The translations under genes and the position numbers were made by a program. 64,000 nucleotides of DNA from a virus, in IMG/VR virus record IMGVR_UViG_3300021180_000005, positions 1 to 64,000 of that record. One strand, 5' to 3'. Shown piece after piece: positions 4,023 through 58,313 of this stretch. The first letter of the stretch is position 1; each line of letters begins with the position of its first letter. The notes beneath the pieces were generated by a model that searched no databases, was not told the origin of the DNA, and saw nothing but the letters and a program-made list of their open reading frames with translations.

Positions 4023-6094
4023 GCCAAGCTATACCAGTGGAGTTAGCCAAAAGTGCGGCTATGAAGTTAGTAATCAGTCAAGGATGGACATGGCAAGGCC
4101 CAAACGGTGGACAGATAAATGTTGAGACCTGTCCCTTCTGCCGGAAGGCAGATTTTAAGTTCTACATCGCAGTGTGCGACCCAGAAGAGTCAACACGCGA
4201 CGGGTTGTTCATGTGCCACCATGGCTCCTGTCAGAAGACAGGCAACCTACGCACATTACAAGAGCAGTTAGGATTGCGTGTAGTAGGAGTGGACTCACGC
4301 AAGGAATGGTCTGGAACCAAAGGTGAACAAGAGCAATTACCCGACGCTGAGATGTGTCATGCCAATCTCCTTTCAGATGCTGATGCGATGGACTATTTAC
4401 TTCATGTCCGGGGGTTCTCAAGGGAAATCATTGAGCGACAAAAGTTAGGCCTCGTGCCGCAGCGGTTCTTCCGTGAGGCTGGCAATGTAAAAGCACTGGT
4501 CATTCCATATCTTGTCAATGGCAACGTAGTGTTCGCCAAGTACCGGACTTTGCCACCGTCACCAAAAGACTTCACGTCTTCAACGGGTTGGGACGCACCT
4601 TTGTACAACGGAGAGGTACTAAACGAAGACATACACAACGTCGTGTTTGTCGAGGGTGAAACCAACACCATCTCTCTGTTGAACTACGGCGTCCACTCGG
4701 TGGTAGGTGTACCGGGAGCAAACATAAAGAAAGCCACGTGGATCGAACAGTTGGACAAGCTGATTGAAAACGGCTTGAAGGTTTACATTCTGTACGACGA
4801 TGACAAAGTAGGCAATAAGTCGGCACAGGAGATCGCATCGCGTATTGGTTTTGATAAGTGCTGGAGAATGCAGTTGCCTTACTTTGAAATCACTGTGCCT
4901 ATAGATCAGTGTAAGCTGTGTGACAAAGACGGCTGGTCGCTTAAGGCTGGGACAGACAAGCATGTACCGTGTACTCATACTAGAGCCGGAAAGGACACTA
5001 ACGAATGGTTCCAACTCGGTGGTGGCACCTTAGAAAAATTCGAGGAATTGAAGAAACACGCTGTTCTTTTCGACGTGACTGGCGTGACATCTACAGGGGA
5101 CGCCCTACAGCAATTAGAGGACGAGTTAAACGGGAAAGTAGACCTAGCCCCTACGTATGTAAGTGGCTGGCCGGAATTGAACCGACTGATAGGGTTTGAA
5201 GACGGAGACGTGATAGATATCGTTGCCCCTGAAAAAGTCGGTAAGACTACCTTCGGCCTAAATCTGCTGGATCACATGGTGAAGACCTACGGGGAAGATG
5301 GTTTATTAGTCTGTCTAGAGATGACTCAGGCACGACTGGCGCGTAAATGGGTGGCTCACGTTACACAATTTGAAGACGCCATAACACAGCCGGGGACTCC
5401 AGAGTCTAGAGCTAAGCTGATTGAGCTGAAGACCGCAGTGGTTAAGTCAAAGGAGATCATGCGCGAGCGTAACGCAGACATCTATTTCGCCTATCCGCAG
5501 CTGGTAAAAGAACCTGAGGATGTGTTCAAGCTCATCAGAGATTGTATCCGGCGCTACGGTGTAAAGTGGGTCATGTTCGACAATGTACAGCGTCTCTGCG
5601 ACGATACGTTGAAGAACCAAGGACACCGCACAGTGCACATGTCGCAGATCAGTAAAGGGTTTGCTAAGCTAGCAAAAGACTACCGCATCAAATTAATCCG
5701 TATTCTGCAACCTAAGCGTATCGAAAAAGGACAGATCATAACTACGAACGATGTAGACGGCAGCAGTCAGGTAGCAAAGGACTGCGATGGTATGATCACA
5801 ATGTGGCGCAGCGTTGTAGGAGAGATGAAGAAGAGCGAGTACGAGGAGGAATCCGTTGGCTTTAAAGAGACTGATGTCTCGTTTGATCCCAAAACAAAAC
5901 TCACTGTTGGTTTGTCTCGCTATTCTGCTGGGGGTAGTTGCTATGTTCTTTGCGATGGTGCAAGAAGTACGTTCCGCTCTTACTCAAATGAAGAAAAGTC
6001 TAAGCTCAATACGAATCTTCAAACGTTCAACTCAGTAATCCCAATGGAAAATGGACCATCGGTGCCCGTGGCAGTAGCGAACATCCCAATCTAA
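4019..6094 (+). CDS. primase-helicase (Zn finger + Toprim + DnaB-like SF4 helicase)
   Basis: CPFC Zn finger, VEGE and YDDD Toprim motifs, APEKVGKT Walker A, LEM, GSSQVAKDCD. Confidence 0.93.
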   Translation: MSQAIPVELAKSAAMKLVISQGWTWQGPNGGQINVETCPFCRKADFKFYIAVCDPEESTRDGLFMCHHGSCQKTGNLRTLQEQLGLRVVGVDSRKEWSGTKGEQEQLPDAEMCHANLLSDADAMDYLLHVRGFSREIIERQKLGLVPQRFFREAGNVKALVIPYLVNGNVVFAKYRTLPPSPKDFTSSTGWDAPLYNGEVLNEDIHNVVFVEGETNTISLLNYGVHSVVGVPGANIKKATWIEQLDKLIENGLKVYILYDDDKVGNKSAQEIASRIGFDKCWRMQLPYFEITVPIDQCKLCDKDGWSLKAGTDKHVPCTHTRAGKDTNEWFQLGGGTLEKFEELKKHAVLFDVTGVTSTGDALQQLEDELNGKVDLAPTYVSGWPELNRLIGFEDGDVIDIVAPEKVGKTTFGLNLLDHMVKTYGEDGLLVCLEMTQARLARKWVAHVTQFEDAITQPGTPESRAKLIELKTAVVKSKEIMRERNADIYFAYPQLVKEPEDVFKLIRDCIRRYGVKWVMFDNVQRLCDDTLKNQGHRTVHMSQISKGFAKLAKDYRIKLIRILQPKRIEKGQIITTNDVDGSSQVAKDCDGMITMWRSVVGEMKKSEYEEESVGFKETDVSFDPKTKLTVGLSRYSAGGSCYVLCDGARSTFRSYSNEEKSKLNTNLQTFNSVIPMENGPSVPVAVANIPI

Positions 6095-41600: not shown

Positions 41601-43682
41601 TAGTAAATTACAAAGTTTGAACCAGATGTATGTGTAGGTCCGGGTCCTGCACCCCAGAATGCTCCTGCTCCATCTCCTGAACCAGTAAAAGTATGCTGAG
41701 CTGGTTGGGTTATGGAGGATATAGGATAATTAAACTGCAACGTGCCCGTAGCCGCTGGGGATATAGCTGTTGTGCCTATATTCGCCTCAGGACTTGGTAG
41801 GTCCATTTCAAAAGTTGTAGGTGTAAGACCTGTACTAAGGACAGTACCTGAAAAATTTAAGAATGTAGGTGTTGCACCTGTTATGCTGTATACCTGATCT
41901 TGAGCTACTACTGGTCCTACGTTGTACGTGAACGTGACCACATTGTTGGTTATAGAGTAAGAAGTAATGGTAAGAGTGTTACTACTGCCTGACCCTGATG
42001 CTGCTGTAAAAGCGGGAGGTGCTCCGGGTCCTATTTGCGATAAAGGGCCAAACGTTACCCCGTCGTACACGCGTGGTCTCTCGGTGCCGATAGAAAGATC
42101 AGAGAACACGATGTGCTCTTTGTTATTCATCGTTACGCTTTTTGCAAAGGAACCCGGAAGAATACCAGTCAAAGCGATATACAAAACTCCGGGGTTGCTG
42201 GTAACGTTTTCCTCCCACAGTATTCCACTGGCGTCTAATGCCAAGGTGTAAGTCTGACCGTTGTTTTGAATGTACGATTTTACGTAGTTGAAATTTACCT
42301 TTGCTGGTGAAAGATACGCCAACACATCTAGGTCATTAACAAACACTGTACCTAGACCACTTGCAGTTACCTGTACTCCGAACTGTGCGTTGTTAACGTC
42401 AGAGAATAACCACGTAGAATTCCACAAATCTATTGCACTGCCTAGGCTATAGATGGTAGGTACTGTGGTTAACGCCTGTGTCTTTGGTGATCCTACAGGT
42501 AACCCGTTCTTCATCAACTGAAGGATTATTGAAGACGACCCGGTAGTGTATGCTTGAAAAGTAGAAGTAAACCCTGTTATACCTGAGGTTGCTGGAATAG
42601 AAAAGTTATAAAAAGTTGTCTGCAGGGCCTGTGTGCCTGAGGCTAAGGTGTAATACACCGTAACCTTGATGTTGTTTGCTGAAATTGTTGCTGACCCACT
42701 GGAAACTGTTCCTGCAATTACAAACCCAAGATGTGAGTTGTTAATGTTCCCTGCAGGGGTTAACGTAGTGCCCCATTGGTACGAAGATGACCCTGCCGTG
42801 TATGTAGCTTTTGTGGTTCCTACTGGAATGTTGACTGTGCTGATGGGATTAAAAGACACCGCATCATTTATCAAACTAATCTGCAGTGATCCCACTCCAA
42901 ACACTGAACAAAACGAATCCACTGTCACCTTTATACCGTTAACAGTGGCGTCTGCTGGTATAGATGCTGTGGCAAAGTGATCTATAACCAGATGACCTGA
43001 GCTTTGCGCAGTTAGGTTAACCGTAGTGTACGATGTGCCAGTGGCTACAATATTAGTAGGAGTATTCCATTGCTGTGGTCCGGGGGCATCTCCTTCGTTA
43101 GCGGTTCTGCTAGGAGTTGGCGATACGCTGTTAGGTGATCCAGATATTGCTGAGGCAAATCCCGTAATTCCAAGAATGTTGTTTGGACTTTGCCATGCAT
43201 TGCCTGTACCAGTAACCGTAGCTACAGTAGGGGCATTTGGTCCAGAAAATTCTCCTGTAGTAGACGCGGCAATTCCGACAAGAGGTGCGTACGTACCCGG
43301 AGCTAATGTTACGCCTGCAACGGTAAATGTCTTGCCTATGGCGTTTACTGATACTACCGTCACCGTTTGTCCGTTTAGAATTGATGTCTGTCCTGTGAAC
43401 CCACTGAGGACAAATTGTTCATTAACCGTTGGGTCAGTACCGATGTAGCTGAAAGTTGCCAACCCTGCACTGCCTACTACAATCTGAGTTATAGTTAAGG
43501 TCTTGGTGAAGACATACACCGAGGACAAACCTGCGCGGGTAAAACAACTTCCGGTTATGTAATCCACGTCCCAATTTCGTGGGCTTGCTCCCTCTGGTAA
43601 GTCTGATGGATTGGCTGCCGTAATAAGCCCTGCGAACGTGTCAAGAGACGCTGTTCCGAGCTGGTCAAAGATTGTGGCCCAC
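38609..43682 (-). CDS. large tail protein (tail tubular B / P22 gp10-like with long insertions); start GTG 43682 needs a +1 shift at 43664-43670
   Basis: frame stays open above GTG 43567 with FAGLITAANPSDLPEGASPRNWDVDY; only SD-supported start is out of frame. Confidence 0.75.
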
Positions 43683-43744
43683 TGGGTTTTCCTCCGTTAT
43701 AAATATAGGCCGATTTTCACGGCCATTCCTGTTAAACAGGTGAA

Positions 43745-45747: not shown

Positions 45748-46436
45748 TGGGTCTTTTCCTTAAATACTCTCTTCATCTCTGCAATGTTTTGTTCATCTGG
45801 AAGATTTCTGTATCCACACCACGGTATGTACATTACCCACGCAAAAGGACTATCCACGGGGTTTATCCATGGCTTGTCACGTTTAGGTGCTCGCAGACTT
45901 CTGACTTTAGGTGCAAAATCTTCCTGCTTACCTGTGTGGATTATGTATCTAGAATCATGGTGTAGAGCTATGCCTTCTTTGGACAAAATGCTGGTTACCC
46001 ATACTTCATCGTTGTTGTCTCTAGGTAGCTCGGCCTTAGCTACAATACTCATAGAACGTTTTGAAAGCCAGTAGCAAAACCCGTACGGTACGGGGTATGT
46101 CCTAATGTCATTTCTGTGACCTACAAAGTCATAACTTTGAAAGTTAGAGGACAACAACTTATGAGGAATAGTTACCACATCGTCATCTATCTTAAGGATA
46201 TAATCGTATTCCTTCCCCAACGCCCACCTTGTAATACCGCGTACTTTACTTGGTAATCCTGCGTAGGAATCGTCACAATTTACGAATACCTCATCGGAGT
46301 TTGGTTCACGCTCTGCTGGTCCAAGGAAAAACCTAACGTCTGCTCCTTGCACAAGAGGCAACCATGTATCACGTATACACTGCTGATACAATAAACGCGT
46401 ATGACAGTTAACAACGGCAAGTAACACTTTCATCAC
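45744..46436 (-). CDS. glycosyltransferase (GT31/galactosyltransferase-like)
   Basis: IRDTW, DDSYAGLPSK, YDYILKIDDD, YWLS. Confidence 0.8.
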   Translation of the reverse strand: MMKVLLAVVNCHTRLLYQQCIRDTWLPLVQGADVRFFLGPAEREPNSDEVFVNCDDSYAGLPSKVRGITRWALGKEYDYILKIDDDVVTIPHKLLSSNFQSYDFVGHRNDIRTYPVPYGFCYWLSKRSMSIVAKAELPRDNNDEVWVTSILSKEGIALHHDSRYIIHTGKQEDFAPKVRSLRAPKRDKPWINPVDSPFAWVMYIPWCGYRNLPDEQNIAEMKRVFKEKTQ

Positions 46437-57641: not shown

Positions 57642-58226
57642 TTAATGACGAGCAGCAATCTCTTTGCAAAGTGCTATGAATTCATCATGTGACAAACTTT
57701 GTTTTGCAAGGTTTGCATCCTTACAACATGGTACGCAGTTCTTTAGCGTATAACCTATAGCTGAGTCTAAACGGTCAATTCCGTTATATGTGTAGGTATC
57801 ATTACCTACCAAAGATAAACCACGTTTGGTTCTATTTCGTGAACTTACAGATGTGTATATGTTTGATGGTTCTCTACCTGTGTAATAGCAGGGAGATTCC
57901 GTAAGTTTTCTAAACTGTTCCTGAGTCAGTTCCCACATAATGCCACGGCTTTTAGCTTGACCTTTGTAATTTCCAAATAGTCCACTAAACTCTGGATTGC
58001 TCACTGTACGAAGACAACCACAGCTGCCTACACGGTTAGACCTTAGCTCATTAGTAGGGACATTTTTAGTATTACCACAGTCACAAAAGCATTGCCACGC
58101 TGTGATTCCATTTTCACTGATGCGTTTTTGCACCACTAAGCGCCTAAAGCGCTGTCCTTCTAAGTCTAAGTGCGCTTTTATTTTTCTAGGTGCTAAATCT
58201 TTACTTCCTTTTGGTCTTCCTAACAT
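57642..58226 (-). CDS. HNH-like homing endonuclease with AT-hook-like start
   Basis: GRPKGSKD, CFCDCG, SCGC, GIDRLDSAIGYTLKNCVPCC. Confidence 0.88.
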   Translation of the reverse strand: MLGRPKGSKDLAPRKIKAHLDLEGQRFRRLVVQKRISENGITAWQCFCDCGNTKNVPTNELRSNRVGSCGCLRTVSNPEFSGLFGNYKGQAKSRGIMWELTQEQFRKLTESPCYYTGREPSNIYTSVSSRNRTKRGLSLVGNDTYTYNGIDRLDSAIGYTLKNCVPCCKDANLAKQSLSHDEFIALCKEIAARH

Positions 58227-58302
58227 GATACCTCCTTCAAAGGTCGAGAAGGGAGCAGTTGAAGGCTGCTCCCAACTCTGACTCAGGATTATAAGCCCTG
58301 AG
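58227..58302 (-). ncRNA. structured leader copy C
   Basis: CTCAGGG-CTTATAA-TCCTGAG TCAGAG ..GGGAGCAG-CCTTCAA-CTGCTCCC.. TTGAAGG AGG. Confidence 0.75.
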
Positions 58303-58313
58303 GTATTAAAAAT

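Follow-up and report, generated by a model that had tools for sequence, protein, structure and literature searches.

A CUU-UGA frame change five codons into a predicted podovirus tail-nozzle gene, probably an obligatory programmed +1 ribosomal frameshift

Introduction

The IMG/VR virus record IMGVR_UViG_3300021180_000005 (103,649 bp; CheckV completeness, 93%) represents an uncultured ~104-kb phage. Its first 64 kb (positions 1 to 64,000), the whole stretch analyzed here and referred to as the window, carries on the minus strand a very large gene, predicted to encode a podovirus tail nozzle (tail hub), whose start lies in one reading frame and whose body lies in another. A Shine-Dalgarno (SD) sequence, a GTG and four further codons lead directly into a TGA, and the remaining 1,685 codons are read in the +1 frame from the second letter of that stop codon. 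Comparison with homologous genes leads us to propose that the nozzle protein is made through an obligatory programmed +1 ribosomal frameshift at the start of the gene, a reading to which we assign a probability of roughly 0.8.

Results

On the minus strand, the SD GGAGG (43695-43691) is followed by an 8-nt spacer (AAAACCCA), the zero-frame start codon GTG (43682-43680), which aligns with the initiator of homologues that begin with MGHNL, the codons GGC CAC AAT CTT (43679-43668; Gly-His-Asn-Leu, residues 2-5 of the in-frame homologues), a TGA (43667-43665) and a C (43664). The zero frame encodes V(M)GHNL and stops. The T at 43667, directly after the Leu CTT of codon 5 (43670-43668), creates a CUUU slippery run, and the candidate shift site, CTT TGA C, occupies 43670-43664. 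The +1 frame opens with GAC (43666-43664), has the translation DQLGTASLDTFAGLITAANPSDLPEGASPRNWDVDY and continues for 1,685 codons to the TAA at 38611-38609 (coding sequence, 43666-38609); a post-shift product would have 1,690 amino acids. A preliminary description of the locus had set out this arrangement (GGAGG, 8 nt, GTG GGC CAC AAT CTT TGA C, product MGHNL*), and all of its elements were found on the minus strand. Its further claim, that the +1 frame lacks ATG, GTG and TTG upstream of 43567, was borne out by reading the codons from the TAA at 43699-43697 (CGG AGG AAA ACC CAG TGG GCC ACA ATC TTT): none of these three start codons stands between that TAA and the site, and the earliest canonical start in the +1 frame is the GTG at 43567.

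The heptanucleotide CTTTGAC occurs 22 times in the 103.6-kb genome, and the nozzle site is the sole copy in frame with a start codon; none of the ordinary genes of the phage ends in CTT TGA C. UGA is the stop of 36 of 128 crudely called genes, UGA-C being its rarest context (4 cases). The nozzle-gene site is more than a chance arrangement because the identical arrangement recurs in homologous genes from other metagenomes, as described below.

A search with the first 400 residues of the protein returned 69 homologues of 1,400-1,873 amino acids, all metagenomic and all but one without a Pfam family. Most of them start with MGHNL[EQDS]QLGTASLD in a single frame, and the zero-frame pentapeptide of the window joined to its +1 frame (MGHNL+DQLGTASLD) restores this family N-terminus with no residue gained or lost; relative to an in-frame CTT-GAC, the window therefore carries one extra T. 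Conservation within the family is highest over the first 45 residues, with G4, D9, G13, P24, E25, G26, S28, R30, D33 and D35 invariant and the His of GHNL nearly so, and these residues would be missing from a product begun at GTG 43567. The closest in-frame relative of the window is the protein P0004. Blastn and tblastn searches against 50,697 phage records gave no match, nor did a single-protein scan of IMG/VR, and no prophage relatives were found in GTDB genomes, hence no clue to the host.

The same frame break is present in other metagenomes. We scanned JGI metagenome contigs with a pattern, GGNCAYAAYCTTTGANCARYTNGG, that requires the extra T and leaves synonymous sites free; seven of the 15 matches are true starts of the nozzle gene, in seven contigs from seven datasets (L066, L068, L071, L073, L074, L077 and L079). 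The remaining eight, which lack an SD or start and have a meaningless +1 frame, are due to chance, and so are two IMG/VR pattern matches (L081 and L082); a variant pattern in which TAA and other Leu codons were allowed yielded chance matches alone. All seven true contigs share GGAGGA[A/C]AACCCA GTG GGC CAC AAT CTT TGA G. Their zero frame reads VGHNL*, their +1 frame reads EQLG[TS]A[SA]LD...GGL...PQDLPEG[AS]SPRN[WF]D[VI]D[YF], and none of the seven has an upstream ATG, GTG or TTG in the +1 frame. L071 and L079 match over the region they have in common, the sequences of L073 and L074 separate about 60 codons in, and the break is found in at least five distinct genotypes besides the window, or at least six with it.

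These lineages are far apart everywhere except at the site itself. The 33-nt stretch from 2 nt 5′ of the SD through the TGA is identical at 31-33 of 33 positions in every pair, and the 48 nt after the TGA are 58-77% identical between pairs, with third codon positions at just 31-56%. Over 75-137 codons of the +1 frame, the proportion of synonymous differences (pS) is 0.71-0.84, which is saturated, that of nonsynonymous differences (pN) is 0.27-0.37, and amino-acid identity is 58-69%. The comparison indicates that the +1 frame is translated and is under purifying selection in long-separated lineages, none of which has lost the stop or the frame change. L071 has, in addition to the shift, two group I introns (Rfam RF00028; 3366-3577 and 3087-3300, plus strand; 72 and 67 bits), which interrupt the gene after ...APQD and ...NWDVD; all three of its exons lie in the +1 frame, and the open reading frame (ORF) stays open for more than 1,036 amino acids.

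The preliminary description had held that a single extra T, arising by assembly error or mutation, would explain the locus equally well, a claim overturned by seven contigs that carry the same break between diverged flanks. The retention of the break by these contigs, together with the saturation of their flanking codons, means that it is neither a sequencing error nor a fresh mutation. One spurious T in the TTT run might well be suspected in a metagenome-assembled contig, but the same T recurs in seven datasets with different flanks, and two more assemblies (contigs of 101,349 and 89,768 bp, from the 90% cluster of the window protein) give truncated calls of a 100% identical protein with the same N-terminal truncation. 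Moreover, when ORFs of three related genomes (104-109 kb) were compared with the window genome by tblastn, 67.4 kb was covered, and the sole frame break in this comparable coding sequence was at 43669-43676. To judge from these sequences, an artefact in the window assembly is very unlikely. The T could instead be real and inactivating, with the contigs derived from defective phages or the gene in decay, since inserting one base at codon 6 is normally enough to eliminate the protein. This explanation is barely credible: the 1,685 codons contain no second defect, purifying selection acts on the +1 frame across lineages whose synonymous sites are saturated, the introns and exons of L071 are in register, and the nozzle is, by homology, an essential virion part. 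Readings in which the break is an error or the gene is dead are thus nearly excluded.

The frameshift-bearing set has a frozen block that reaches from the SD to the UGA and takes in the spacer as well as the synonymous sites of GGC, CAC and AAT; in in-frame relatives, which use GGG/GGT/GGA, CAT and AAC, these sites are free to change. This 31-nt cassette (GGAGGAAAACCCAGTGGGCCACAATCTTTGA; 43695-43665) has one variable position (A/C) in the alignment of the frameshift-bearing sequences, and its GGAGG is invariant in all six distinct ones. In every frameshift-bearing lineage, the SD and the UGA mark the exact limits of conservation, a pattern that points to translational constraint rather than to a gene-conversion tract; no RNA pairing or structure that would account for the frozen block was found. 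The seven contigs (L066, L068, L071, L073, L074, L077 and L079) have EndoVII/HNH-like endonuclease genes of 185-259 amino acids and at least two types that overlap the nozzle start in the third frame, ending 23-38 nt past the nozzle GTG; as a result, the cassette is read in all three frames. No such overlapping gene is present in the window.

That endonuclease ORFs (ending ...GG[KQ]PSGPQSLSS) terminate across the cassette in five of the six distinct frameshift loci raises a different explanation, in which ribosomes do slip past a genuine cassette, but the cassette is kept mainly as a by-product of selfish elements. Its extra T would change the target of the homing endonucleases and introns clustered at the 5′ end of the gene, and the cassette would spread or be retained as an immunity allele, not as a means of controlling expression. 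Group I introns 13 nt downstream, at codon 9/10, in L002, L003, L010 and L023, none of which has the extra T, fit this explanation, as does the scattered distribution of the frameshift state on the tree. Yet in the window the cassette stands without any endonuclease 5′ of it, in-frame loci (L002, L004, L008 and L012) also have upstream endonucleases, conservation that stops at the same two signals in every lineage is not accounted for, and there is no known cleavage site. We consider a selfish by-product quite improbable.

The introns came to light among about 14 homologues that appeared to start late. These were candidates for additional frameshifts, and those with readable DNA (L002, L003, L010 and L023) turned out to carry a group I intron after codon 9, between MGHNLEQLG and TASLD (L002:5740-5990, L003:239-518, L023:5749-5962 and L010 about 5935-6010). 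Rfam RF00028 detects it in L002, L003 and L023 (54-67 bits); in L010, the same intron 3′ end was recognized by its sequence, not by the Rfam scan. Exon 1 of L002 reads TTG GGG CAT AAC CTC GAA CAG CTC GGT, and the intron is followed by ACA GCT TCT. The conserved 5′ end of the nozzle gene is a hot spot for mobile elements.

Start codons are unusual in this family. The aligned initiators of relatives comprise about 20 ATG, 10 TTG, 6 GTG, 2 ATA (L008, about 1020-1030; L013, about 5990-6000), 3 ATC (L009 and L015, about 5980-5990; L027) and 2 ATT (L024 and L047), the last three classes being apparent starts. About half of 43 relatives have a non-ATG start, and TTG and GTG are far commoner than usual. 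In the relatives with AUA, AUC or AUU, an SD lies 7-8 nt upstream and an in-frame stop lies just 5′ of the initiator.

The identity of the protein rests on its predicted fold. Neither Pfam nor PHROGs yielded a family for the nozzle protein at E <= 0.01, PDB sequences searched with a profile gave no match, and the only sequence-family trace of the protein is a lead from the ESM atlas (0.79). We modeled the C-terminal 746 residues with AlphaFold2 from a 33-sequence alignment (mean predicted local distance difference test score, pLDDT, 80.8; predicted template modeling score, pTM, 0.69). The best Foldseek matches are all podovirus tail nozzle or hub proteins, headed by a chain of phage SU10 (7z4b_DW, E 1.4e-14) and including cyanophage A4, Pa223, the crAss001 muzzle, P22 gp10, Sf6, VP1, GP4 and T7, with a probability of 1.0 for P22 gp10 and T7. 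VIA-align superposed the model on the Pa223 tail (Z 15.1, 336 residues aligned, root mean square deviation [rmsd] 3.5), SU10 (Z 14.4, 339 residues, rmsd 3.8), VP1 (Z 14.4, 336 residues, rmsd 3.9), T7 gp12 (7boy_s; Z 11.8, 328 residues, rmsd 3.9) and P22 gp10 (Z 11.7, 317 residues, rmsd 3.6). These matches to nozzle and hub proteins identify the gene as a very large podovirus nozzle (tail hub) gene, its product being by predicted fold of the T7 gp12 / P22 gp10 class, and the preliminary label of a large tail gene was right, given that the C-terminal 746 residues fold like podovirus nozzles. The structural matches belong to C6 tail complexes, and by analogy six copies per virion are expected.

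Inserted in the nozzle C-terminal region is a jelly-roll module (model residues 154-345; 40390-39815, minus strand) that resembles a carbohydrate-binding module (CBM); VIA-align matched it to CBM16, CBM4 and CBM61 chains (Z 12-13, rmsd 2.5-3.2, 133-154 residues aligned). In the model, it may form a glycan-binding surface on the tail hub. Further downstream in the gene, two ~90% identical cluster members (P0073 and P0074) have gene calls that both end directly after HTTMF (HTTMFG at 39211-39194 of the window, minus strand), which suggests another insertion, intron or break at that point in close relatives.

Several neighboring genes were noted. Upstream of the nozzle gene lies an 82-amino-acid ORF (43993-43745, minus strand) for which no Pfam or PHROG family was found; L071 has a homologue of it followed by an inserted endonuclease gene, and in relatives a homing endonuclease sits between this ORF and the nozzle start. 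A GIY-YIG homing endonuclease gene (38520-37735, minus strand; PF01541, 1e-13; phrog_314, 3.6e-33) lies directly 3′ of the nozzle gene, and two genes 5′ of it, at 45061-43997 on the minus strand, is a gene with an ice-binding-like DUF3494 domain (PF11999, 1.2e-49). Two glycosyltransferase genes (47203-45744, minus strand) join at 46433-46436, a point that had appeared as a second candidate frame break and is an ordinary gene junction (AGGAGA, with an ATG that overlaps the TGA). Both genes have separate homologues in relatives, and in one genome alone (G001) the two parts form one 601-amino-acid ORF, which reflects natural gene fusion or fission and not an error of frame. ARAGORN reported a permuted transfer-messenger RNA (G000, 102331-102737, beyond the window) with the tag ANDNTVVTPKAKAMGAAAGV, as well as an 84-nt "tRNA-Phe" at 58226-58309 of the window that has an odd anticodon position and may be a false call.

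Discussion

We posit the following sequence of events at the nozzle gene. Ribosomes would load at GGAGG, initiate at GUG and synthesize fMet-Gly-His-Asn-Leu, at which point they would pause with peptidyl-tRNA(Leu) on CUU in the P site and UGA in the A site. From this state, either RF2 (release factor 2) would terminate translation, releasing the pentapeptide, or the tRNA would slip from CUU to UUU, after which GAC (Asp) would be decoded in the window, or GAG in the relatives, and 1,685 further codons would give the 1,690-amino-acid nozzle protein. The slip would take place at CUU-UGA itself, and the N-terminal tryptic peptide expected from it is (M)GHNLDQLGTASLDTFAGL...SPR. The supposition of the preliminary description that this is a programmed prfB-type +1 shift is strengthened by the fused product, which equals the family N-terminus, and by the retention of the break in seven contigs.

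Several observations weigh against this proposal. Out of 46 IMG/VR loci retrieved by the family profile and read at their 5′ ends, all 44 with a readable gene start are in frame there, without a break, and so are most of the 69 homologous proteins. There is no prfB-like SD stimulator 3 nt 5′ of the CUU, no conserved RNA structure was found at the site (z +1.55; -4 kcal/mol, no covariation), and the UGA is followed by G in each of the seven frameshifted relatives, where prfB typically has a C. On a tree built from the 135 N-terminal amino acids, the frameshift-bearing sequences are not monophyletic and imply a minimum of three changes; the window pairs with the in-frame P0004 (support 97/90), L073 pairs with L077 (96/85), and L066 stands apart. 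Finally, a near-cognate AUC is present in the +1 frame just 5′ of the shift site. With most of the wider family showing an in-frame CTTGAC, the shift is a property of certain lineages, not of the family as a whole. The preliminary description had asked whether homologues keep the CTTTGA break or read CTTGAC in frame; both occur, the former in seven contigs and the latter in most of the family. Since the frameshift state is scattered on the tree, recombination may spread the cassette, which is then not necessarily ancient in every lineage: it either is old and has been lost repeatedly, for which one deleted T suffices, or has been moved by recombination.

The AUC (43672-43670) underlies the main mechanistic rival to slippage, in which the ribosome does not shift at all and instead starts directly, or restarts after the MGHNL mini-ORF, at this codon, giving a product (M)FDQLG... 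that is three residues shorter. The AUC is a +1-frame codon inside the invariant block, 5 nt 5′ of the UGA, and the apparent ATA, ATC and ATT starts of other family members make initiation at such codons plausible for a nozzle gene. Its distance from GGAGG is unfavorable, at 18 nt versus 8 nt for the GUG and 7-8 nt in the relatives with AUA, AUC or AUU starts. In addition, the zero-frame codons encode GHNL, the conserved residues 2-5, which would be a coincidence in an untranslated leader. We therefore judge initiation at the AUC improbable.

Other routes to the +1 frame were considered and rejected. An alternative genetic code would not help, as the zero frame meets a TAA eight codons past the TGA and is not conserved. 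A Leu-to-Leu hop is possible in the window, where a CTC lies 10 nt downstream, but its product would lose the conserved xQL, and the relatives, with TTA as their +1-frame Leu codon, could not hop in this way. Transcriptional slippage was dismissed because the T run is three long, which is too short for it. We found no phage-encoded release factor (no gene with an RF-1 domain) in the phage genome and no special phage tRNA-Leu.

The programmed shift that we favor has much in common with that of prfB: a Leu CUU in the P site with a U that permits re-pairing on UUU, an in-frame UGA, a +1 frame that encodes a conserved protein, a break close to where the gene begins and, in the case of the window, a C after the UGA. 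UGA is read only by RF2, and UGA-C is a weak termination context; with G after the UGA in all seven relatives, the C is not a conserved feature. There are also differences. The nozzle gene lacks an AGGGGG-type SD 3 nt 5′ of the CUU, as the preliminary description had remarked and the upstream sequence (GTG GGC CAC AAT) confirms, and its sole SD is the initiation GGAGG, 20 nt 5′ of the CTT. The site lies at codons 5/6, whereas that of Escherichia coli prfB is at about codon 25-26, and the whole initiation region (SD, spacer, GUG and four codons) is frozen together with it. The product is a virion nozzle and not RF2, and there is therefore no closed autoregulatory loop. The nozzle site would work like a prfB site but is not a member of the prfB system.

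Phage virion genes offer partial parallels. In the capsid and tail genes of Listeria phage PSA, reportedly described by Zimmer et al. in 2003, a +1 shift is likewise said to occur at a stop codon, with a Pro-codon/UGA site near the 3′ end yielding two useful products, one short and one C-terminally extended. In the nozzle gene, by contrast, the zero-frame product is a pentapeptide, and the shift would be obligatory for any protein. Tail assembly chaperones of the lambda G/GT type are said, from the work of Xu, Hendrix and Duda in 2004, to share a conserved -1 frameshift. They resemble the nozzle gene in that a phage tail gene is recoded, in their case to fix a product ratio at efficiencies of a few per cent, but they differ in direction, in their heptanucleotide slippery site, in making two functional proteins and in gene class. 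A further analogy is infC, the gene for initiation factor 3 (IF3), whose AUU start throttles or regulates output at the first steps of translation; it fits the relatives with AUA, AUC or AUU starts and not the window, being a matter of start-codon discrimination and not of frameshifting. The -1 shift of the tail chaperones has a reported efficiency of 6-7% (PMC3711429).

The internal SD is what makes the prfB shift highly efficient. Because the internal SD of prfB is absent, the shift probably has an efficiency of a few per cent, by analogy with published sites that lack SD pairing. A prfB-type shift without SD pairing reached about 7% in Flavobacterium johnsoniae, the naturally SD-less prfB site of Winogradskyella psychrotolerans is equally effective, and SD-less prfB sites are common in several phyla, including many Planctomycetota, Firmicutes_A/B and Cyanobacteria (PMC10798248); prfB-type efficiencies are 6.6% in M. 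smegmatis and 53% in B. subtilis (PMC12421855). The SD-less prfB sites share with the nozzle site a CUU UGA that lacks SD-antiSD stimulation, and about 7% is in the range expected for the nozzle gene; unlike them, the nozzle site lies in a phage structural gene and not in the autoregulatory prfB, and it stands beside the start codon.

Shifting of a few per cent is consistent with a six-copy protein read from a strong SD. The purpose of the shift may be to keep the output of this virion protein low, and that output could be sensitive to host RF2 activity; a coupling of nozzle synthesis to RF2, or any function in timing, would be a possible extension. Many in-frame relatives seem to use UUG, GUG, AUA, AUC or AUU as start codons, and low output thus seems to have been selected across the family by different means. 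The notion in the preliminary description that shifting sets a low stoichiometry gains indirect support from the nozzle fold, which is of a six-copy type, and from these weak or non-canonical starts.

The frozen block invites a bolder and, in our view, doubtful reading. The 31 nt could constitute a self-contained, portable, "initiation-coupled" +1 module in which the stimulatory role that the internal SD has in prfB would pass to a just-started ribosome, with its SD still engaged and a nascent chain of five residues. Diverged phages would exchange this module among themselves, possibly along with the overlapping homing endonucleases. If true, this would introduce a novel class of stimulator for +1 shifting at stop codons, together with a horizontally spreading recoding signal.

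Conclusions

To our knowledge, few stop-codon +1 frameshifts outside prfB have been proven in bacteria and phages, and our literature searches, which cannot prove absence, turned up no description of a CUU-UGA site in a nozzle gene. Gene callers truncate the nozzle gene, giving calls of 1,617 and 1,652 amino acids in place of 1,690, and such genes are therefore mis-annotated in virus catalogues. In diverged phages, the slip core of RF2 appears to have been reused for an essential virion protein of 1,690 amino acids, five codons into the gene and without an SD stimulator. These phages would provide a natural system for the yield of the bare CUU-UGA core, for the behavior of ribosomes in early elongation and for the question of whether a phage can tie a six-copy tail part to the termination capacity of its host. 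Together with the weak starts of the sister lineages, they would form a comparative series on how the stoichiometry of a rare virion protein is set.

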